A stretch of 64,000 nt of DNA from Candidatus Melainabacteria bacterium 17Bon1m (GTDB lineage: Bacteria > Cyanobacteriota > Vampirovibrionia > Obscuribacterales > Obscuribacteraceae): NCBI GenBank assembly GCA_032128875.1, contig JAVLKG010000001.1:1017453-1081452 (forward strand), given 5' to 3'. Under the pieces are notes generated by a model that worked only from the letters and a program-made list of their open reading frames with translations, was not told the DNA's origin and made no database searches. A program made the translations under genes and the position numbers. Shown in pieces: positions 3,791 to 24,144 of this stretch. How positions within the stretch are numbered: the stretch's first letter is position 1; each line of letters starts with the position of its first letter.

Positions 3791-5182
3791 CTACTTTCCT
3801 AAAAGTCCTTGTAAATACTTTGTACAGCGAGGAAATGCTTGGCTCAGACCAGTAGATCTCTTATTGTCGCTTGGCGAAATTGTAGCGAGGAAAAGTTCTG
3901 CGAACATCTCCGAACGTCCTGCATCATTTTCTTGCAGAAAATACTCCCAGGTTCTTCTCTGTTCGCTGCCCAAGTATTTTCCATCGTCTTCATATGCTTT
4001 GACGAATTCTTCCGCCTTCGAGTAGCTGCCGGTATGGTCGTATGCATGCCCCATCTCATGCAGCGCTGTCGTAGGAAGATACCAATTTTCCTGTAGTGGG
4101 CTGTTTTGCCAAGAAACTCGTTCGCAGAGATAAATCTTCTTTGGACCAGGACTAAACATGCCACCACAATTGTCGTAGCCACCACCATGATACCCACGCG
4201 GTTTTTCAATGTTTAGTTCTGGATGTGCAGACAACATGTCTGGCACAATGAAGATGGTGATGCCAGCGCTTTTTACCGACTCTTGAACTCGCTTCGGCAC
4301 TTTTGCGATGGCTGTTCTCACTTGCTGTTCTGTTTTGTCTGTGTATTGCGTTCTTCGAAAAATTTCGATTGGTACAAATATCTCTGCTTTTGGTTGAACG
4401 ACTGTTGGATTAGGAGGTTGTGAAGGATAGCTTGTTGTTCTCTGTGATGTGTTGGTCCTGCTTGCAGTCGTTGCAGTACTGCCGCCAACCGGAACCGTTG
4501 GACTGCTTGTGGTGTATTTTCTTGGTGTTCCTTGCGGCTTCCTTCCACCTCCTAGTTCAACGTTGAAACTTTGCTTGCCTCGTTTCACCTTCAGGTGTAA
4601 CGCACCACCGCTGGGGTTAGAGAGCGACTCCAACAAATCCTGATCTCCAGGGTACTCCCTCACGTTTGTCCCATTTACATACTCAATTTGATCGCCCGGA
4701 CGGAGTCCTGCATACCAGGCTGGAGAACTCTCGTCAACGCTCTCAATGCGATAATTGTTCGAGGCTGATAGTCCAGTGTAAATGCCACCATGTTTGATGT
4801 CATCCTGTTCGGAGGCTGCTTCGATCGCTGCCTCCGAGACTCCACGCACAAGATCACATTTGTATCGGTTAGCTCCTCTCACTATGACTAGCGACAGCTT
4901 TGTACCCGAAGGTCCAGTTATCAGATTTACAACCTGCTCCAGTTTCTTTCCAGCTGAAGGCACATTGTTTACTGACTCTATTTTGTCGCCGCGAAGTATG
5001 CCCGCCTTTTGCGCAGGCGAGTTTGGCATAACATACTCAACAATAATGTTCTCGTTGAGTTTCATTCCCGTGAAGCCTTTGTCAGCAAACGCAATTTGGC
5101 AACTTACTGTCGCTGCGATCAGTAAAGCTGTTTTCGCCGATTTGAAAAACTGCATGGTCGTTGCTCTTTGTGTCATCGTCAA
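3791..5182 (-). CDS. Secreted protein with two PDZ domains and a C-terminal ATLF/PPEP-like (M34) zinc metalloprotease domain
   Basis: Signal peptide; SPAQKAGILRGDKI and SPAWYAGLRPGDQI PDZ motifs; Thr/Ser/Pro linker; KPRGY..GYD, LHEMGHAYD, SEMFAELF, AFPRC. Confidence 0.8.
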   Translation of the reverse strand: MTMTQRATTMQFFKSAKTALLIAATVSCQIAFADKGFTGMKLNENIIVEYVMPNSPAQKAGILRGDKIESVNNVPSAGKKLEQVVNLITGPSGTKLSLVIVRGANRYKCDLVRGVSEAAIEAASEQDDIKHGGIYTGLSASNNYRIESVDESSPAWYAGLRPGDQIEYVNGTNVREYPGDQDLLESLSNPSGGALHLKVKRGKQSFNVELGGGRKPQGTPRKYTTSSPTVPVGGSTATTASRTNTSQRTTSYPSQPPNPTVVQPKAEIFVPIEIFRRTQYTDKTEQQVRTAIAKVPKRVQESVKSAGITIFIVPDMLSAHPELNIEKPRGYHGGGYDNCGGMFSPGPKKIYLCERVSWQNSPLQENWYLPTTALHEMGHAYDHTGSYSKAEEFVKAYEDDGKYLGSEQRRTWEYFLQENDAGRSEMFAELFLATISPSDNKRSTGLSQAFPRCTKYLQGLLGK

Positions 5183-5356
5183 CTGTTGTTCGTCCAGACC
5201 TGATATACCACTTCTTTCTCATTCTTCAATCAAGTGTGTATCTAAGGGAGTACGTCGAGAATTTGCGCTTCTCTTAGAACAAAAAACACTTGTTCTCGAA
5301 GAGTTTCCTCGTCGATTTCATTTGTAGGAAGGTTGGACATCGTTTTCGGTTCGATA

Positions 5357-6235
5357 CTAGTAGTTCGAAATAAAGAGCTCTGAACCTATCTTACTTTCTT
5401 TCTTCAAATTGCAGTTGTTCATGCCGTATTGAAGCTGCCAGTTCTGAATATTCGCCCAACGATAGAGTTTGCGAATTTCCGGGCAGTCGTCGTAGGTGAT
5501 GAGAAAGCGGTGCTTAGGTGTTTCTTTCAAAACTTTTGCCAAGCGCACGTGATCGAATTCGTGCAAGATGCCACCACGTCCATACAAGCGTGATGCTTTA
5601 AAGTACGGCGGATCAATAAAAATGAAAACGTTTCTGCCCGGCTTTTGGATCACGTGCTCGTAATCTAGGTTTGTGATTTCAACGCCACTCAACGCTTCTG
5701 GCATAGGCGCAAGGCGTTGAATTGATGATGCGGTAAAACGTCGCAAACTAGCCGCGCTGGAAAATCCACCTGCGCGAGTGGTACCAGAAAATGTGACGCG
5801 ATTGAAGAAGAAAAACAGAAACGCCGCGCGATATCGATCTGGCGTTTTTTCTGAACGCGCTTTCAAAAAATACTCTTTGATTTTTTCAGCATCATCTCCG
5901 AAGCTTTGGCGCAAAAGCTCCAACTCGCGCATCAACCGCGCACATGTTTCCTCATTTTGCACCGCTTTCCAAAACGCATGCAGCTCGCTGAATTTATCGT
6001 TGATCCAATACTTTTCTGCGAATCCCTTAGATTTCGCGTGGAAGAAAACGCTCGCACCGCCAACCAGCGGTTCGCGAAATTCTCTGGCGGACGCTGGAAA
6101 AAGTTGAGCTATCTGATCGATAGCTTTCTGCTTGCCGCCTGGATATCTCAAGGGCGAGCGATAACGTCTCTCGGTGCTCGCGGTTTCTGCGTCGGCGCCC
6201 GGAATGATGATTGTGGCGTTGTTAGTGACAGCCAT
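5357..6235 (-). CDS. DNA N6-adenine methyltransferase, Dam/D12 class (apparently orphan)
   Basis: SPLRYPGGK, FREPLVGGASVF (SAM-binding motif), IND, FIDPPY catalytic motif. Confidence 0.9.
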   Translation of the reverse strand: MAVTNNATIIIPGADAETASTERRYRSPLRYPGGKQKAIDQIAQLFPASAREFREPLVGGASVFFHAKSKGFAEKYWINDKFSELHAFWKAVQNEETCARLMRELELLRQSFGDDAEKIKEYFLKARSEKTPDRYRAAFLFFFFNRVTFSGTTRAGGFSSAASLRRFTASSIQRLAPMPEALSGVEITNLDYEHVIQKPGRNVFIFIDPPYFKASRLYGRGGILHEFDHVRLAKVLKETPKHRFLITYDDCPEIRKLYRWANIQNWQLQYGMNNCNLKKESKIGSELFISNY

Positions 6236-16089: not shown

Positions 16090-17424
16090 TTAGTGACCGG
16101 CACCACCTGCAGTTTCAACAACCTCGCCCGAGTCTTCGACTCGCGCAACCAAAAGGGCTGCCACAAGCATTGATGCGCCACCGAGCATAACAACATATAG
16201 GGGGTTGTTGTGAAATACATGTTTTACCAATGGCTGGAAAGTCACCGACGCTAGAATTTCAGGAATGACGATGAAGAAATTGAAGACTCCCATGTATACG
16301 CCAGTGCGCGCTGCCGGAATAGCGGCAGAAAGGATTGCGTAAGGCATTGCCAAAATTGACGCCCAGGCGATTCCGACACCAATCATGGTGAACTGAAGAG
16401 TGTTGGCATCTTGAATGAAATAGACGGATAGTAAGCTTAAGCCACCTAATGCAAGCGCCACTCCGTGTATGAGCTTGCGACTAAATTTCTTTGCAAGCTT
16501 TGGCAACATGAATGCGACGAGAAAACAAACGATCGAATAAACGGCGAAGCACCAGCCTGACCATTCAGTTGCTTTGTCGAACAATTCAGAACTGGGACCA
16601 GGCGCTTTGAACACGTGATAAGCCGTCGTTAGTCCGAAGAACATCCACATGCAGAAGAGCCCGAGCCACGTGAAAATTTGCACTACGGCTAGCTGCTTCA
16701 TGGTCTTAGGCATTTCGCGAACAGCCTCGGGGATTTCTTGGAATACTTCCCTCAGCAATCCTAGAAAGCCCGGATTCTGAGCGCGATGTTTTTCAAACGC
16801 TTCCATGTCTTCAGGTGGATATTCGTTTGAGAGAAACACCGTCCAAAGGACGCACAGCAAGAACATTGCTGCGCCGATTTTGAATGAATATTGAACGGTC
16901 AAGGGAACGCCGTTGGGTGCAAGACCGGTCACGCCGAAGTTTCTAAACAACATCGGGAGGGCATTAGCCATGGTGGCACCGATGCCGATGAAAAAGCTCT
17001 GCATGATGAAGCCGGTCGTTCGTTGCTCATGGTTCAACTTGTCCGCGACGAACGCGCGGAAAGGTTCCATGCTTATGTTGATTGATGCATCGAGTATCCA
17101 GAGAAGCGTGGCAGCCAACCACAGCGCGGAGCTGTCAGGCATAAGGAAAAGCGCAACGGAAGCAAGAATTGCTCCGACAAGAAAATACGGACGGCGTCGC
17201 CCCAGCTTGCCCCAAGTTCTGTCGCTCATAGCGCCAATAATTGGCTGGACCAATAAACCAGTTACCGGTCCAGCTAACCACAAAATTGGAATGTGTTCGG
17301 GATCAGCACCAAGCTTGGTGTATATGGCGCTCATGTTTGCCAATTGCAAACCCCAACCGAACTGAATTCCGAGAAATCCGAAATTCATATTCCAGATTTG
17401 ACGGAAGCTCAGCCGCGGCTTCAT
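16090..17424 (-). CDS. MFS transporter, maltose/sucrose-type (SLC45/MalT-like)
   Basis: QIWNMNFGFLGIQFGWGLQ, GLLVQPIIGAMSDRTW..LGRRRPY, GVYMGVFNFFIVIP. Confidence 0.85.
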   Translation of the reverse strand: MKPRLSFRQIWNMNFGFLGIQFGWGLQLANMSAIYTKLGADPEHIPILWLAGPVTGLLVQPIIGAMSDRTWGKLGRRRPYFLVGAILASVALFLMPDSSALWLAATLLWILDASINISMEPFRAFVADKLNHEQRTTGFIMQSFFIGIGATMANALPMLFRNFGVTGLAPNGVPLTVQYSFKIGAAMFLLCVLWTVFLSNEYPPEDMEAFEKHRAQNPGFLGLLREVFQEIPEAVREMPKTMKQLAVVQIFTWLGLFCMWMFFGLTTAYHVFKAPGPSSELFDKATEWSGWCFAVYSIVCFLVAFMLPKLAKKFSRKLIHGVALALGGLSLLSVYFIQDANTLQFTMIGVGIAWASILAMPYAILSAAIPAARTGVYMGVFNFFIVIPEILASVTFQPLVKHVFHNNPLYVVMLGGASMLVAALLVARVEDSGEVVETAGGAGH

Positions 17425-18657: not shown

Positions 18658-18775
18658 TTTTCGCTCCTTTGATTTGATAGCACGCTCGTTGCTTTGCTAA
18701 ATCTGCGTATGCGTTCGCCGTCTGTGCACATGCACAGAGCGACTTGTATTTAGTACTGCGGGCGATGCCCCAAGT

Positions 18776-18863
18776 TGTTTAACGAACTGACTGGAATTGC
18801 TTTACGCGTTGACTTGACTTGTTTTACGAACTGACTTGATTTGTTTTACGAACTGACTTGAAT
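18776..18863. repeat. Tandem repeat, 4 x 22 bp (tgttttacgaactgacttgaat consensus)
   Basis: Units at 18776, 18798, 18820 and 18842; the last contains the TetR stop codon. Confidence 0.9.
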
Positions 18864-19442
18864 CGCTGTGATTTGATTGCGCAGGCTGGTGGCAACAGAG
18901 TGCATGTATGTTAGATCCGAATACAGCCTCGTCAACATGATGCCACCTTCAAGAGTGGCTATGAATGATCGGGCTACTTGCTGCGCATCTGTTGATGGTT
19001 TGATATCGCCTTCGCTGATGCCATTCTCTATCAACTTTTCTACTGTTCCAAGGACTGAATCCATCGCCTTTTGAACGCGGATTTTCATCTCCGGATGCCC
19101 ATCGTCACACTCTACAGCGCTGTTTAACAACGGGCAGCCCCCAGTAACCGGCGGGTCTGATGCGACACTCATGAATGCATCTACAAATGCCATCAGCTTG
19201 TCGATTGCCCTCTCTTTCATATTTAGATGGCGCGTGACTTCGGCAGAGCTTACTTGAAATGCGAAATCAAATGCTTCGAGAGCCAGTTGGTCTTTGCTCG
19301 GAAAGTGGTTGTAAATTCCTCCCTTTTCCAAACCTGTTGCGTTCATCACGTCAGACATGGACGCGCCAAAGTAGCCACGGCTGTTGAATAGAGCCGCTGC
19401 CTTACCCAAGATCATGTCGCGGGTGACTTTACCTTTGCCCAT
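18846..19442 (-). CDS. TetR/AcrR family regulator (LmrA/YxaF/NemR-like)
   Basis: HTH GYFGASMSDVMNATGLEKGGIYNHFPSKDQL; GGCPLLN; start MGKGK at 19442. Confidence 0.9.
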   Translation of the reverse strand: MGKGKVTRDMILGKAAALFNSRGYFGASMSDVMNATGLEKGGIYNHFPSKDQLALEAFDFAFQVSSAEVTRHLNMKERAIDKLMAFVDAFMSVASDPPVTGGCPLLNSAVECDDGHPEMKIRVQKAMDSVLGTVEKLIENGISEGDIKPSTDAQQVARSFIATLEGGIMLTRLYSDLTYMHSVATSLRNQITAIQVSS

Positions 19443-19454
19443 ATTTCTCAAAAT

Positions 19455-19500
19455 CGGACCGAACGGTCTGAAATATACTCCCCGGCTTTGTGTCTGTCAA
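19455..19500 (-). promoter_or_regulatory. Sigma70 promoter with palindromic TetR-type operator
   Basis: TTGACA (19500-19495), 17 bp, TATATT (19477-19472), then the palindrome CAGACCGttCGGTCCG (19470-19455). Confidence 0.8.
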
Positions 19501-19517
19501 GCAAATCCGCAACAGCT

Positions 19518-22433
19518 TTATTGGGCTTGCTTTGCCGGCTCTGGGGTGGCTGGACGAACGCGCGCCAGGATTTCGGCGAACTGCTGTTGTGCGACTTCAC
19601 TTGCCAAAACATCCGACATGCGCAAGAAAGTCAGTCCGTTATAGAAGCCGTCGTTGGGGTTGTCGCCCCATCCCTTTAAGAGTCGAGCCATTCTTTCCCA
19701 AGCGGCTTTGTCGTAAAGGGTTCCTGCCAGGGCGTTTTCGCCTTTGATAATCAGACCCTGATTGTTGGCTTCCTTGCCGACCCATTTTGCCAATGAGTTC
19801 GGCAGTGACTGGGCGATAGCGCCGTCCTGTCCGTCAGGCAATTCGAGAGCTGTGAAATGTGGCACGACCCGTGAGAACGGGCTCTTGGTCTGGAGGTCTT
19901 TGAATACACTGAGCAGTGGTCTGTAGCCGTAGCCGCCTGCTTCGTTCCAGTCTTCTGTTCCGGTCGAGATTAGTCCGGCGGAAAGTTCTGCTTGCCGCCC
20001 GGTGAAGACGATATTGCCGTTTTCCCAATAACCCATACGCCAGTGTACGCCTGGGATCTTCGCACCGAGGTCGATGCCTGCGAATGCCGAACCTTTGGAA
20101 CCAAACACGTCGAGGGCTGAAGAAAGTACCTGGTTGCCGTGTTGTTGCAACGACTTGCTGTACCAGTCGAAGAAGTCTTTGCCATATTGCGTGTTGCGGT
20201 AGTCACCGCTTGCATAGAAGTCTTCAGCGTTTTTCGGCGGTTCGATCGCAGTGCCGTACTTCTCTCCCCATGCTTGTTTTGCTGCTTCTTCGGAGCCGTA
20301 TTTTTCAATTGCGAATGTTTTCAACGACTCGCGGGCGAGGTCAGAATAGGCTTGTAGCGAGCCTCTTGTCGGCCAGCCGCTGCCTTGATCGTGGTAGTTG
20401 TATGACGGATACCGCAACTCGCCTGCAGGTCCGAGGCTGACGTTGATTTCGGCGATGATCGGAGCTTTTCCGGCAAAATGATTTTGGAATTCGGTAAACA
20501 CGTTGCGGTAAAACGGCAGAGCATGTTTCGTTGCCCAAAAGTCTACATACTCGCTGCTTACGTTGCCTTGTTCACTCTTAAACTTGCCGACATCCGGGTT
20601 GGATGAACCGATGCTTGATTGGAGCTTGCTCCAGATCCACATCGGAATCGGAACATTGGCGGTATCTCCGACGTTGCCTCCGCATTCGTGCAACGACAAA
20701 ATCGGCACCCACTTAAGTCCTTGCGATGCAATTTTTGAAGAGAGAATGTCGTAATACTTGAATTGAAATTGTCCCGGCTTTGGCTCGACGGCGCCCCACC
20801 AGACATCGGTGCTCACTGCGTCGGCGCTCAGTTTTTTGGCTCGCGCTAATTCGCCGTCATAGTTATTCCATGCATCTTTGTATTTCGGATTTTCGGGGTC
20901 ATGCACACTGCCGATTTCTAGCGGGCCCATCACGTTCATCGTGATCATGTGTCCGTCGAGGCGGACGATCTTGCCGATCGGATTGTAGTTGCGGTGCTCC
21001 CAAGGCGTCTTGCCTGTGGCGAGTTTTATCCTTCCGGCTTCGCTTGTTTCAAGCCAAATTGTGCCTTTGGCTGTGGGGAAAACATGCTTTGCTCTCTCGG
21101 CGGCAGTCAGTTTTTCAGGAAAACAGGTGGCGAGTATGTCGGCGGCATTAGCGGCTGGACGAATTCCTGGCTGTCCTTCTCCAAATCTTTGAACGAAGAG
21201 GCTCTTTATGTCGCCAAATTTTTCAACACCAAGTACTCTTTTCACTTCCCTGACATTGAGAGTCGCTTCTCCCTCGTGTCTGGCGGTGAACTTGTCCAGC
21301 GCTTCTTTTCCATCAACGACGACGAACTCACGAGCCTGCGTGGTGCGTCCAATGTGCCAACGCTCCAACGCGTTGGAAACCTTCTCTGCCGGCTTGGCGA
21401 GCACTCTTTCGACGTTCGCGTGTGCTTGGCTTGAGGAAAACTTTAGACCTGCACCGGCTCCGAGTACACCAACACCACCGTCGATTACCCCTTTCTCTAC
21501 AACCTTCGTCCAGTCAATCGGCTTGCCTTCGGCCTGCTGGCGCATGATTTCGCCGCTGCCGCCGTTAACCATACCGAAGCTGCCGCCCATGACCATGCCG
21601 GACGCCAGGGGATTTTGGACGAGGCGCCCACCCATGGCTTTGTTGACGCCATAGAAGGTACCTTCTGCAGCGCCAAATACTGCGGCATCGAAGAGCCAGG
21701 CTTGCGGGTTGATTGTCTCTGCCTTGAGGCGTTCGGCCTGCTTCAGCGGGTCGGTAAATGTTTGGCGATCGAAAACTATATCTGCATCCCGAGCGGCTAT
21801 GCCCATGAAGACGCCTTTGGTTGGTGCAAAGCTATAGTTTCGAGACACTGCTCCGAAAAGCATTTTGATTGACTGTCCCTTGACCGCACCCAATGTGAAA
21901 TCGGCGGCTCGCTGCATGGGCGTGTCGTCCGGACTGGCCTTATCGAGCCCGTAGGTTACAAGAGTGGTTGCAACGCCGATTTTGCCACGTGAGAAGAGCG
22001 CCGCGGTCTTCAAAAACTCTGTGCCAAGGTGGTCGTATTCTTTGCGCTGTGCCTCGTCTTTAACCGCAATGGAAAGAGCGCTGTCGACGGCATTTTCCAG
22101 ATAGCTATGTCTGGGTTTTGGTGCTGGGTTTGCCTTGATGTAGAGGTCTGAAGCTTCGGCCAAATGCGCGTACATGATGGCAGAAACGTTCTGATTCGCC
22201 GCATCCAGCGCTTGATTCTGCGCCCCTTCCGGGGGCCGATTTTGCTCGACTGTCTTACCCTTTGCGGGCAGAATCTCAGGCATTATTATTTCGCGCGACA
22301 AGAGAGAACCAGATTCTCTTATGTAATTGTTTTTGCTCTCAGATCTCAATGGGGAAAGTCCCAAAAGCAAGCAGATTGCTATGGGAAACATACGCGCGCC
22401 ATTTAATCTAAGGCGAACTCGTTTTCGAATCAT
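19518..22433 (-). CDS. GH14 beta-amylase with a long N-terminal domain of unknown function
   Basis: DVWWGAVE, HECGGNVGD, LGPAGELRYPSY, KIPGVHW, FTALE, GENAL, TFLR within about 19560-20948. Start uncertain (22433, 22391 or 22283). Confidence 0.9.
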   Translation of the reverse strand: MIRKRVRLRLNGARMFPIAICLLLGLSPLRSESKNNYIRESGSLLSREIIMPEILPAKGKTVEQNRPPEGAQNQALDAANQNVSAIMYAHLAEASDLYIKANPAPKPRHSYLENAVDSALSIAVKDEAQRKEYDHLGTEFLKTAALFSRGKIGVATTLVTYGLDKASPDDTPMQRAADFTLGAVKGQSIKMLFGAVSRNYSFAPTKGVFMGIAARDADIVFDRQTFTDPLKQAERLKAETINPQAWLFDAAVFGAAEGTFYGVNKAMGGRLVQNPLASGMVMGGSFGMVNGGSGEIMRQQAEGKPIDWTKVVEKGVIDGGVGVLGAGAGLKFSSSQAHANVERVLAKPAEKVSNALERWHIGRTTQAREFVVVDGKEALDKFTARHEGEATLNVREVKRVLGVEKFGDIKSLFVQRFGEGQPGIRPAANAADILATCFPEKLTAAERAKHVFPTAKGTIWLETSEAGRIKLATGKTPWEHRNYNPIGKIVRLDGHMITMNVMGPLEIGSVHDPENPKYKDAWNNYDGELARAKKLSADAVSTDVWWGAVEPKPGQFQFKYYDILSSKIASQGLKWVPILSLHECGGNVGDTANVPIPMWIWSKLQSSIGSSNPDVGKFKSEQGNVSSEYVDFWATKHALPFYRNVFTEFQNHFAGKAPIIAEINVSLGPAGELRYPSYNYHDQGSGWPTRGSLQAYSDLARESLKTFAIEKYGSEEAAKQAWGEKYGTAIEPPKNAEDFYASGDYRNTQYGKDFFDWYSKSLQQHGNQVLSSALDVFGSKGSAFAGIDLGAKIPGVHWRMGYWENGNIVFTGRQAELSAGLISTGTEDWNEAGGYGYRPLLSVFKDLQTKSPFSRVVPHFTALELPDGQDGAIAQSLPNSLAKWVGKEANNQGLIIKGENALAGTLYDKAAWERMARLLKGWGDNPNDGFYNGLTFLRMSDVLASEVAQQQFAEILARVRPATPEPAKQAQ

Positions 22434-22438
22434 GGCTC

Positions 22439-23671
22439 TTATGTTTCTTTGAGCGGGTCGTATTCGTCTGCGGACAAACCGAAGGTCCAGGCTACGCCCT
22501 CGCGAGCGGTTTTGGTGTCGGGCGGAACGCGCAAGAAATAGTTGTTGTAAGTCCCGTCAGGCTCGGGAGTTGAATTGACTACATGCACAATGACTATGTC
22601 TTCGTGATTGTCGCCGAAATGCTGACGATAGAGGACTCCGCTCTTGTCTTGCTGAACGACTTGCGCCCCAGAGTCTTTGATAAAGGCTTCCAAACCGTAC
22701 ATCTCAAGCATCATTCGACGAATCTCGACGTTAGGCTCATAAAAAATAAGCGTCACGTCTTTCTTGATGCCAAACTCTAAGAACCGCTCAGGAACGAATG
22801 TTCCGTGCCATGCAAAAGTTTCCCACCCGTCTTGATACTTTATCGCGCCGCCAATGGTATTGTGCAAGAGCCCCTCGCGATCAACGCTGACGCGATTTGG
22901 TCTGTCTATCATCAAGCACACATCTTCAAACGGCCACCATATATGCCCGAAGCGCGCTAGATGGAAATACGGCATGATTTCCGGCACTCTAAAGCCTGCT
23001 GCACCAGTTATGTCGTAAAAGGGCAACTCGGCGTCTAAGTTGCCATATCCGGCAGACGCAAATTGTCCCATCGCAGAAATAGCCAATCCGCAGGTTAGCG
23101 GACGGTCGTCGAATTCTTCGAACGGCTTTGTATATTCTTCAGGCAAAACATAAGTCAGCTTGTTTATCAACATGGTCAAAAGCGCTGGTGGTGCCAATTG
23201 GCCCCACACAAGCTCGAGGTTGATATTCTCCACGCCGGGTCCGACGTGCCCGACAAAACTAGCAAGAACAGCCTGGCGTATTTGATGCGGCAGAGTTGCG
23301 AACGAACGTCTGAGTGCGGGCGTCAGTTTGTTTTGGATTGTCGTCCACCACTGTTTGTCGCCCTTGTCCTCGATCAGTTTCCAGAGTTTTGCACTGCATT
23401 GGTTTCTAAAATTGGTGACTACCTGCTTGTGAACACTGTTAGTACCCTTTGAGACCAATGCAGCCGAAACGGCACCGTGAAATGGCGAATCGAACCACAC
23501 GAAATAGCGCGGAGGTTTTAAGCCGGCGTTTGAGTAAATGTTACAGACTGCTTCCTCAGCCTTGCGCCGGTCGCAAGGCGAAATATTAAACGCCACCGCC
23601 TTGGAGCGTTCTACTACTTTCTTTACCGCCTCATCAGCGTTCTGACCAACTTCGAACTGGGTCGAGGACAT
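22439..23671 (-). CDS. DUF6745-family protein
   Basis: DRRKAEEAV..IY..AGL..P..FVWFDSP, WWPFEDVC...DRP, GLLHN, NVEIRR.M.E, NSTPEPDGT...YFLRVPP...TAREGVAWTFGL....Y.P..ET. Confidence 0.8.
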   Translation of the reverse strand: MSSTQFEVGQNADEAVKKVVERSKAVAFNISPCDRRKAEEAVCNIYSNAGLKPPRYFVWFDSPFHGAVSAALVSKGTNSVHKQVVTNFRNQCSAKLWKLIEDKGDKQWWTTIQNKLTPALRRSFATLPHQIRQAVLASFVGHVGPGVENINLELVWGQLAPPALLTMLINKLTYVLPEEYTKPFEEFDDRPLTCGLAISAMGQFASAGYGNLDAELPFYDITGAAGFRVPEIMPYFHLARFGHIWWPFEDVCLMIDRPNRVSVDREGLLHNTIGGAIKYQDGWETFAWHGTFVPERFLEFGIKKDVTLIFYEPNVEIRRMMLEMYGLEAFIKDSGAQVVQQDKSGVLYRQHFGDNHEDIVIVHVVNSTPEPDGTYNNYFLRVPPDTKTAREGVAWTFGLSADEYDPLKET

Positions 23672-23673
23672 AC

Positions 23674-23982
23674 TTAGTCGACTACGAGCCTTGTAGAGCC
23701 AGGGACGTATTCGCGCTGCTGAACAACTCGATATATTCCGGGTTTGAGCGTGATAGCGCTGTGCTCTTCATGTACCAATATGGCGCCGTCAAGAGCTTCA
23801 ATAAATCTCTCCGCTCCATGCTGATACAGCTTTGCAAAACGAGCATCTATGGCGTGCGCGTGTCCCGTGGTTTCGCCCCATGCCAGAACAATTCTCTGTT
23901 CAACCGGTTTCCTCTGGGCGTTTTTTGGCAAAGTCTGAACTCTCGCCAACAAAACGTCTCCCTGTCTGTAGGTTTCAACCAT
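23674..23982 (-). CDS. Small His-rich conserved protein, partner of DUF6745
   Basis: YRQGDVLL, LAWGETTGHAH, HEEH, PGIYRVVQQREY; RBS ggag before ATG 23982; 2 bp from the DUF6745 start. Confidence 0.8.
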   Translation of the reverse strand: MVETYRQGDVLLARVQTLPKNAQRKPVEQRIVLAWGETTGHAHAIDARFAKLYQHGAERFIEALDGAILVHEEHSAITLKPGIYRVVQQREYVPGSTRLVVD

Positions 23983-24144
23983 GTTTCTTCTCCGTTCGGG
24001 CAAAGGGCGCCTCAGCGTTCTTATACCCATTTACTCATATTTTGATGTGTTTTGGGGCAGCAGCCCGGTTCTCAACAGGTTGGCTCAATGCAAGTTGCAC
24101 CTGGCTACGGTAAACTTTGCAGGTTCAGAAAAAGGGGAATTCAA

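Follow-up and report, generated by a model that had tools for sequence, protein, structure and literature searches.

Where in the cell, or outside it, does a beta-amylase act that has no signal peptide and is carried behind some 450 residues matching no described protein? This question is raised by a single gene of Candidatus Melainabacteria bacterium 17Bon1m, an organism of the order Obscuribacterales, in a 64,000-nucleotide stretch of contig JAVLKG010000001.1 (the whole of this stretch is referred to here as the window). The gene encodes a glycoside hydrolase family 14 (GH14) beta-amylase, and an initial annotation, made from the letters of the window, had proposed that its N-terminal half delivers the enzyme into other cells. 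We found that this half consists of two domains, A and B, that domain A recurs in front of many unrelated C-termini throughout the order, and that the fused beta-amylases lie beside genes for sugar importers while a separate, leaderless GH14 lies beside a gene of maltose metabolism. Taken together with the catalytic motifs and the lack of a signal peptide, this architecture and these two contrasting neighbourhoods lead us to favour, by a slight preference, the reading that a lineage-specific delivery module puts the beta-amylase cargo outside the cytoplasm of the producer, either on its surface or into another cell.

The open reading frame is uninterrupted over 971 amino acids (aa), at window positions 19518..22433 including the upstream in-frame extension considered in the initial annotation, with its stop codon at 19518-19520; residue numbers follow this frame, and all window features lie on the minus strand. 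The catalytic domain spans aa 496-955 (19569..20948), as delimited by a Pfam match and by alignment to solved enzymes. Glyco_hydro_14 (PF01373) was the sole Pfam family in the protein, at aa 520-952 with an E-value of 7.7e-86 and 289 bits against a cut-off of 27, and an NCBIfam scan of the whole protein gave no match. When the C-terminal 480 aa were compared with solved beta-amylases by phmmer, the best matches were 3voc (1.3e-59) and 1vep and 1b90 (~1e-58). The motif GPAGELRYPSY (aa 668-678; 20400..20432), which reads GPSGELRYPSY in 3voc, contains Glu672, presumably the catalytic acid, and GENAL (aa 898-902; 19728..19742) contains Glu899, presumably the catalytic base. Both align column for column with the same motifs of the solved enzymes, and the loop motif HECGGNVGD (aa 582-590; 20664..20690) aligns with them through its GGNVGD part. 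The intact reading frame, the GH14 half and all three motifs had thus been described correctly, and on the strength of the profile and both glutamate motifs the C-terminal half is, as far as sequence can tell, an intact beta-amylase of GH14.

The claim that no CBM20 is recognisable was likewise upheld, since neither this nor any other starch-binding module was found among Pfam families at E<=0.01 and the protein stops ~16 aa past the GH14 domain. The enzymes of Bacillus cereus (1b90 and relatives) and Paenibacillus polymyxa (3voc, a beta/alpha-amylase) have the same catalytic (beta/alpha)8 domain, with E-values of ~1e-59, but the solved Bacillus chains continue for ~100 residues beyond the aligned part. 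We take this tail to be a starch-binding domain and those enzymes to be exported by the general secretory (Sec) pathway. The present protein differs from them in having no signal peptide and in the two undescribed domains that make up its 450-aa head.

The absence of a signal peptide depends on where translation starts, and the initial annotation had cautioned that a start at 22433 or 22391 would add a signal-peptide-like segment, MFPIAICLLLGLSPL. This segment lies in the first 50 in-frame codons (22284..22433). In an alignment of 22 proteins retrieved with the N-terminal region, one of which is a 99% identical copy, these 50 residues are common only to the window protein and that copy; with the copy set aside, 20 of 21 orthologues start at the position aligned with Met51 or later, and the remaining one has an unrelated N-terminal extension of its own. 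The stop-to-stop frames are merely 912-914 aa long in three genomes of the same genus. Furthermore, no hydrophobic stretch of the signal type occurs in any of the 128 family representatives whose leader is complete, as measured with a 12-aa hydropathy window by which the upstream extension scores 2.60. A start at 22433 would also sit 5 nucleotides (nt) past the stop of the upstream gene. Because of the orthologue starts, the short same-genus frames and the missing leaders, we place the start at 22283, which gives a likeliest true coding sequence of 921 aa beginning MPEILP at Met51 (19518..22283). The fusion is thus probably translated from Met51 without a signal peptide, and the apparent signal peptide would be a translation of intergenic DNA, so that the caution raised earlier is contradicted. 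There was no clear ribosome-binding site ahead of either start candidate, and scans for promoters and terminators returned background levels only.

The same head is found on other proteins of this genome (7.55 Mb in 35 contigs, 93% complete). Domain A occurs in six of its proteins with differing C-termini, namely the beta-amylase fusion and five others of 462-1768 aa, one of which has a PGDYG domain and four of which have no Pfam match in the C-terminus; two further proteins have domain B alone, behind a different head. A profile made from six domain A sequences and searched against 1.84 billion protein cluster representatives retrieved 453 of them at E<=1e-3 and 281 at E<=1e-30. Among the best 150 of the 453, domain A begins at median residue 73 in proteins of 277-2150 aa; when the C-termini of 145 of them were grouped by BLAST, 33 components resulted.

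A Pfam scan of 134 of the best 150, the 16 longest being omitted, revealed more than 15 families in the representatives, with the majority of C-termini having no Pfam match. The families found were PGDYG (seven cases), AAA_33/Zeta_toxin (four), phage GP30.3 (four), LRR families (at least five), and GH14, HD and TPR (three each), together with single cases of ART/ADP-ribosyl exotoxin, NUDIX, Peptidase_M28, FHA, a ChaN/EreA (erythromycin-esterase)-like domain, an RHS repeat and a PolyA_pol head; GH15, at 21.7 bits, fell narrowly short of its cut-off of 22. Toxin-type families are accordingly represented by one ART/ADPrib_exo_Tox, four Zeta_toxin/AAA_33 and one RHS repeat match in the 134. In each of 20 singletons scanned individually, the Pfam domain lies C-terminal of domain A; the ART domain occupies aa 355-514 of protein P0097, and in P0105 the M28 domain occupies aa 442-657. 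In 14 representatives that are not GH14 enzymes, domain A is followed by domain B.

With genomes assigned to Obscuribacterales by the names of their homologues, 87 of the 107 genomes have domain A, with 1-14 matches per genome. Of the 39 genomes with a completeness of 90% or more and a contamination of no more than 5%, 28 have it; the genera without it mostly have smaller genomes. Outside the order it was found in one of 294 genomes of the same class, and weakly (E 2.5e-6), and in none of 300 other genomes sampled across the phylum. These searches indicate that domain A is an N-terminal module in its own right that is confined to the order. The initial annotation had proposed searching the N-terminal half against the genome and its relatives, and the outcome is that the same domain recurs, fused to many C-terminal domains; the head is neither exclusive to GH14 nor a known carbohydrate-binding module or anchor.

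Three parts can be distinguished ahead of the enzyme. The polar leader (aa 51-104; 22122..22283) begins with ~20 residues that are predicted to be disordered, with AlphaFold2 confidence values (pLDDT) of 42-51, and continues as a long helix that is conserved among orthologues only; the leaders of the family have a mean grand average of hydropathy (GRAVY) of -0.81. Domain A (aa 105-358; 21360..22121), the common N-terminal module of the family as defined by the profile and the AlphaFold2 model, is predicted to be a Gly/Ala-rich bundle of about eleven helices. Domain B (aa 367-491; 20961..21335), the second shared module as defined by its model and its occurrence in the family, is predicted to be a small alpha/beta domain. 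The model of aa 51-515, built from a 117-row alignment, was confident, with a mean pLDDT of 87.1, as was that of domain B alone (pLDDT 90.7, pTM 0.85). Conservation in domain A falls on glycines spaced as GxxxG together with K142, D178, K185, R215, D249 and E295, and its near-invariant residues are these and F147, G182, G186, G207, G211, G287, G291 and G329. The description of the N-terminal half as Gly/Ala-rich and helical therefore holds, with the Gly-rich stretches at aa 279-296 and 319-329 lying inside helices of the predicted bundle. That these helices are hydrophobic is true only to a moderate degree, since no 19-aa window past Met51 in the N-terminal region reaches a Kyte-Doolittle value of 1.2.

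Searches for relatives of the head gave no usable match. Pfam at E<=0.01 found nothing on aa 1-519, PF14449 included, and comparison of the model of domains A and B with the PDB returned a best Foldseek E-value of 0.08, TM scores up to 0.23 and a best VIA-align Z-score of 5.6; for domain B the corresponding best values were 0.24 by Foldseek and 2.6 by VIA-align. The ESM Atlas matches of domain A, at 0.91, 0.90, 0.88 (an RHS-associated cluster) and 0.85 (PF14449/PT-TG, at rank 24), are all within the stated chance range, and domain B had no usable match there. When the domain A profile was compared with PDB sequences, the top hit, to 62 residues of an "internal virion protein" at E 0.017, was treated as chance. 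The head is thus, as had been claimed, unlike a known carbohydrate-binding module or anchor in that Pfam, NCBIfam, PDB-sequence and fold comparisons all returned no match, and the modelling suggested at the outset yielded two confident domains with no clear counterpart in the PDB; a missing fold match is not proof that the folds are new. A predicted complex of two copies of domain A scored 0.00, which speaks neither for nor against self-association.

The initial annotation had considered the N-terminal region to be a membrane-inserting or delivery domain. Domain A has a GRAVY of 0.02; the most hydrophobic 19-aa window has a median value of 1.27 over the family and reaches 1.6 in 4 of 100 members. 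In an inside-out hydropathy test with GH14 and domain B as soluble controls, the most variable third of the alignment columns had a mean Kyte-Doolittle value of -0.12 in the helices of domain A, compared to -1.34 in GH14 and -1.18 in domain B, and its fraction of polar or charged residues was 0.30 compared to 0.50 and 0.45. Within the domain A helices the variable and conserved thirds hardly differ in this respect (-0.12 versus -0.02). By these values domain A has no classical transmembrane segment, and membrane insertion is not supported; the variable positions are unusually apolar nonetheless, and such an apolar variable surface would fit contact with lipid or with a partner protein and proves neither.

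Some further observations concern the domain A family and its relatives. Two of the domain A paralogues in the genome, at C5:584986-586827 on the plus strand (4001-5839 of locus L009) and at C22:22867-24663 on the minus strand (4004-5797 of locus L011), share a C-terminal domain with 41% identity over 544 aa. This shared C-terminus had no Pfam match and, with the C5 paralogue as the query, no match among PDB sequences; its pattern GEWDNHA(L/M)NM ... NIDLG resembles the catalytic loop of atypical or lipid kinases and makes it a candidate of this type. A second type of head, of ~250 aa and with the pattern LVEDF...PVNA...NYWAQQSG...PVEEGD, precedes domain B in two proteins (L014:4004-6838 and L015:4004-6226, both on the minus strand) and also occurs in a 482-aa protein adjoining a domain A gene (L013:6003-7451, plus strand). 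No relation of this head to domain A was found by hhalign. The head of paralogues C7 and C9 was tried as a divergent domain A, but hhalign gave a probability of 0.19% (E 0.32) and it was treated as a different head, with domain B as the only shared part. In a genus with 13-14 copies (genomes G054 and G055; loci L039, L041, L042 and L043), domain A genes encoding proteins of 819-1518 aa stand in tandem pairs that are inserted into otherwise syntenic housekeeping neighbourhoods. Four of the six domain A genes of the source genome have an OmpR-type regulator, in some cases with a histidine kinase, no more than 7 kb away (C5:584986, C1:553455, C14:71739 and C22:22867), an association that we judge to be weak because the genome has 89 homologues of the regulator (crude binomial p ~0.01).

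GH14 is present in 65 of the 107 genomes of the order, in a long form of ~860-1060 aa and a short form of ~450-550 aa. The second GH14 of the source genome is a short form of 489 aa that is 46% identical to the fused one, has no leader and opens with the first barrel strand (MKIKHITINVMAPL); of 113 short forms taken from the protein collection, 58 have this strand in their first 12 residues, and the search pattern missed the strand in 38. In a FastTree phylogeny built from 136 GH14 domains, 29 of which come from forms that have domain A or B, these labels require 4 changes compared to 26.7 when shuffled, so the fused beta-amylases cluster in the phylogeny that the initial annotation had called for; the tree has no outgroup and local support values only, and contig fragments account for at least some of the short rows that fall within the long clade.

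The two forms also differ in their neighbours. The short GH14 of the source genome (C8:253874-255343, minus strand, outside the window) and the GH77 4-alpha-glucanotransferase MalQ (C8:256266-257822, plus strand; E 9.2e-182) are divergent neighbours, and in 12 further short-form loci from four genera MalQ was found within 8 kb in six, and the major facilitator superfamily (MFS) gene described below in none. For the long form we compared 15 loci from eight genera, and MalQ was present in none of them. In the window, a gene for a SUC/SLC45-like MFS sugar:H+ symporter (16090..17424; Pfam MFS_1/MFS_2) lies 2.1 kb downstream of GH14. Among solved structures its closest relative is SUC1, a sucrose transporter of plants (E 7.4e-21), with SLC45A4 next, and the gene is single-copy in the source genome. 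Orthologues of 75-97% identity lie within 10 kb of the long GH14 in 7 of the 15 loci. In five of these, from two other genera, it follows the long GH14 immediately and in the same orientation, the two genes overlapping by 4 nt or being 21-32 nt apart, and in the genus of the window three genes intervene. In another genus, four loci have a Na+:solute symporter directly upstream of the long GH14 and an adjacent phosphoglucomutase, as identified by Pfam in one of the four and by membership of the same BLAST clusters in the other three. A symporter gene thus stands directly beside the long GH14 in 9 of the 15 loci. Since a disaccharide symporter is here paired with a maltose-producing enzyme, hydrolysis outside the cytoplasm followed by uptake is the simplest reading, and the neighbourhoods add support to the action of the fused beta-amylase outside the cytoplasm.

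In plant plastids, beta-amylase acts on starch and the maltose is then metabolized through a GH77 glucanotransferase. The short leaderless GH14 beside MalQ is similar to this arrangement, and the likeness applies to the short paralogue, not to the fused gene. A cytoplasmic pathway of beta-amylase and amylomaltase is unusual for bacteria and resembles plant starch breakdown.

The architecture of the domain A family can be compared with polymorphic families in which a conserved N-terminal trafficking domain precedes variable C-termini, such as the LXG, MIX, PAAR/RHS and CDI-type systems. Like these, the family has one N-terminal module with many unrelated C-termini (ART, zeta-toxin-type and RHS among them), several copies per genome and tandem pairs. 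On the other hand, domain A has no Pfam match to any of the LXG, MIX, PAAR/RHS or CDI-type domains, markers of type III, type VI and type VII secretion systems (T3SS, T6SS and T7SS) and of contractile systems were not found in the genome, and the present cargo includes a nutrient-releasing glycosidase that is linked to a sugar importer. The enzyme is a GH14 member, in a system that would work like the known polymorphic toxin families but whose head matches none of them and is linked to no known apparatus.

There is a precedent for a translocated amylase in LamA of Legionella pneumophila, which is reported to be injected by the Dot/Icm type IV system (PMC8262857); the likeness to the present case lies in the use of a glucan-degrading enzyme as a delivered effector. 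No Dot/Icm-like system is tied to the domain A family. LamA and the present fusion also differ in enzyme family and in delivery signal. In the literature on Obscuribacterales, Melainabacteria and Vampirovibrionia that we could cover, which excludes most subscription journals, nothing was found on domain A or on the fusion.

We propose that the head, composed of domains A and B, is a delivery module that would carry the leaderless GH14 behind it (aa ~496-955) out of the cytoplasm of the producer, with the cell surface or medium and another cell being about equally probable as the destination. There the cargo would clip maltose from the non-reducing ends of an alpha-1,4-glucan, such as the glycogen or starch of other cells, or detritus. 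The released sugar would be imported by the co-encoded symporter, and the separate leaderless GH14 beside MalQ would handle the glucan of the cell itself. In this scheme we infer the export itself, any action of domain A on membranes, which glucan is the substrate, and the uptake of maltose. We favour delivery because the family has the architecture of polymorphic effectors, because some of its cargos act on substrates found only inside cells (as is the case for the ART, zeta-type kinase, NUDIX and HD domains), and because the beta-amylase is tied to sugar importers and stands apart from the housekeeping GH14. The earlier proposal of a delivery domain with a beta-amylase cargo therefore gains from the occurrence of the same head on many cargos and from the neighbouring transporters, and finds no support for membrane insertion or for a link to known machinery. 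As for the proposal that starch of a prey or host is mobilised, no result here points to prey, or to starch over glycogen.

There is also a stronger form of this proposal, in which domain A, either alone or together with domain B, would serve for recognition or self-translocation in an undescribed delivery route private to the Obscuribacterales. Dozens of enzymes would be sent into other cells by this route, among them ADP-ribosyltransferases, kinases and nucleotide hydrolases as well as the beta-amylase. We hold it to be rather unlikely. If it were true, the Obscuribacterales, supposed to be free-living, would be predators or parasites like their cousin Vampirovibrio, and the beta-amylase would turn the glycogen or starch of the victim into importable maltose. 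For Vampirovibrio, type IV secretion has been proposed (PMC4451040). The link to Vampirovibrio drawn in the initial annotation does not hold for the organism itself, which is not a Vampirovibrio; its close homologues are labelled Candidatus Obscuribacterales, Candidatus Melainabacteria or "Cyanobacteria bacterium".

A number of observations weigh against delivery of the beta-amylase out of the cytoplasm. Four of the 15 long-form loci have no transporter among their classifiable neighbours, and an all-cytoplasmic sugar operon would also fit an adjoining symporter or phosphoglucomutase. The organism has glycogen-synthase-like genes, and its lineage mostly has leaderless short GH14 forms, which implies that a cytoplasmic beta-amylase is normal there. 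Domain A is predicted to be without a classical transmembrane helix. The FHA, TPR, HD, NUDIX and kinase cargos would equally suit intracellular signalling, and the domain A genes are scattered or tandem-paired among housekeeping genes with no conserved partner.

The remaining points of this kind concern the route of export. The genome, which is 93% complete, was searched for TssC, VirB4 (PF03135), phage or T6SS sheath proteins, FHIPEP and WXG100, and none was found. It does contain three secretins, two of them in tandem (C2:317855-320781, with frames of 800 and 807 aa) and the third on contig C6, and four VirD4/TraG-type matches, one of which stands alongside a relaxase. Another of the four, a VirD4-type coupling protein of 983 aa, is chromosomal and adjoins a 939-aa TraG-P-loop/AAA_10 (VirB4-like) ATPase (C1:802250-808895); the neighbours that were scanned there include no relaxase. 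This ATPase is found full-length and 71-99% identical in 106 of the 107 genomes of the order, including genomes without domain A. It is too conserved for a mobile element and may be part of a core type-IV-like machine, and since it is a core gene that is also present where domain A is missing, it cannot be attributed to the domain A family. Delivery by known machinery is thus not borne out, no T3SS, T6SS, contractile-sheath or WXG100 marker having been found in the genome. The C-terminal tails of the family were also compared with a crude background and had a net charge of 0.95 versus 0.53 (p 0.008) and a proline count of 1.77 versus 1.26 (p 3e-5). Both are small shifts, measured in non-independent rows and against the background of a single genome, and we did not accept the tail composition as a secretion signal.

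Other explanations could account for the family. One is that domain A, alone or with domain B, is an intracellular address label by which enzymes and signalling domains are anchored inside the producer, whether at a storage granule, in a large complex or on the cytoplasmic side of the membrane; the fused beta-amylase would degrade the cell's own glycogen there. We consider this the main rival, though on balance doubtful. It would explain why no injection or one-step secretion system is linked to the family, and it agrees with the leaderless GH14 that is common in the lineage (58 of the 113 short forms), with the glycogen-synthase-like and MalQ genes, with the cytoplasmic phosphoglucomutase that adjoins the long form in one genus, with the FHA, TPR, HD, NUDIX and kinase cargos, which suit intracellular regulation, and, weakly given the 89 homologues in the genome, with the OmpR-type regulators near four of the six paralogues. 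However, a cytoplasmic beta-amylase already exists beside MalQ, whereas the fused clade is beside MalQ in none of 15 loci and stands beside symporters instead. In addition, the ADP-ribosyl exotoxin-type, zeta-toxin-type and RHS cargos, the polymorphism over many copies and the tandem pairs form the pattern of delivered effectors, and no granule- or membrane-binding family matches the head. A further rival is a tether on the outside of the cell. In LapA-like adhesins, retention modules stall in the channel of the outer membrane, and the fusion could in the same way be exported C-terminus first through an ABC/TolC-type (type I) exporter until its folded head stalls there and the enzyme is displayed. 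Here the missing signal peptide, the compact and confidently folded head ahead of variable passengers and the slightly more basic and proline-rich tails (measured against the single-genome background and in non-independent rows) would all be in place, and a neighbouring symporter would profit from a cell-bound enzyme. Nevertheless, the tails of eight paralogues have neither RTX repeats nor a common C-terminal motif, cargos that require NAD or ATP, such as ART and the zeta-type kinases, would be useless on the cell surface, and type I components are too common to discriminate, so that we regard display by this route as improbable.

Two explanations carry very little weight with us. The protein could be an ordinary Sec-secreted beta-amylase that starts at 22433 or 22391, with MFPIAICLLLGLSPL as its signal peptide, given that the upstream frame is open and that this stretch scores 2.60 on the 12-aa hydropathy window; but the extension is missing from every orthologue except the near-identical copy, the same-genus frames of 912-914 aa leave no room for it, none of the 128 family leaders is of this type, and only 5 nt would separate the start from the upstream stop. 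Just as improbable is an anti-phage or abortive-infection family in which domain A would act as the effector by damaging membranes, with the variable C-termini serving as sensors. While the Gly-rich helices with apolar variable positions and the sensor-like LRR and TPR C-termini of some members would be compatible with such a role, PADLOC recognised none of nine proteins (the target, seven paralogues and the ART member), a beta-amylase, an aminopeptidase and a NUDIX hydrolase would make poor sensors, and the beta-amylase member is conserved together with sugar transporters. Delivery of the cargo out of the cytoplasm thus remains the reading that we prefer.

Upstream of the fused gene, the window contains a gene for a 410-aa DUF6745 protein (22439-23671; E 5.8e-56) and next to it one for a 118-aa protein of no family (23674-24030). 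The synteny of TetR, cupin and DUF6745 genes with the fused gene is seen within the genus only, with DUF6745 present in parts in some genomes. Public sequencing runs that are labelled with single coded organisms (A and B) and not as metagenomes also contain all or most of positions 18700-24100 of the window, in one case on a contig of ~42 kb, which suggests that the bacterium either lives alongside other organisms or is a contaminant of their cultures. In three further cases, labelled as RNA-Seq, the stretch occurs as contigs of 22-57 kb, which implies DNA in the library, and these runs are therefore uninformative on transcription or on the start of the transcript.

The domain A proteins form an unnamed family of hundreds of clusters, present in most genomes of an order, that has had no name, profile or recognisable fold. 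The fused GH14 beside symporters and the leaderless GH14 beside MalQ indicate that the lineage runs a GH14 inside the cell, in a plant-like maltose pathway, in addition to the fused form. Within the family, the beta-amylase member offers a testable case, with an easy enzymatic read-out and a conserved transporter partner. If the head is indeed a delivery module, it would show how these non-photosynthetic relatives of the cyanobacteria interact with other cells, and it would point to a secretion route outside the numbered systems.

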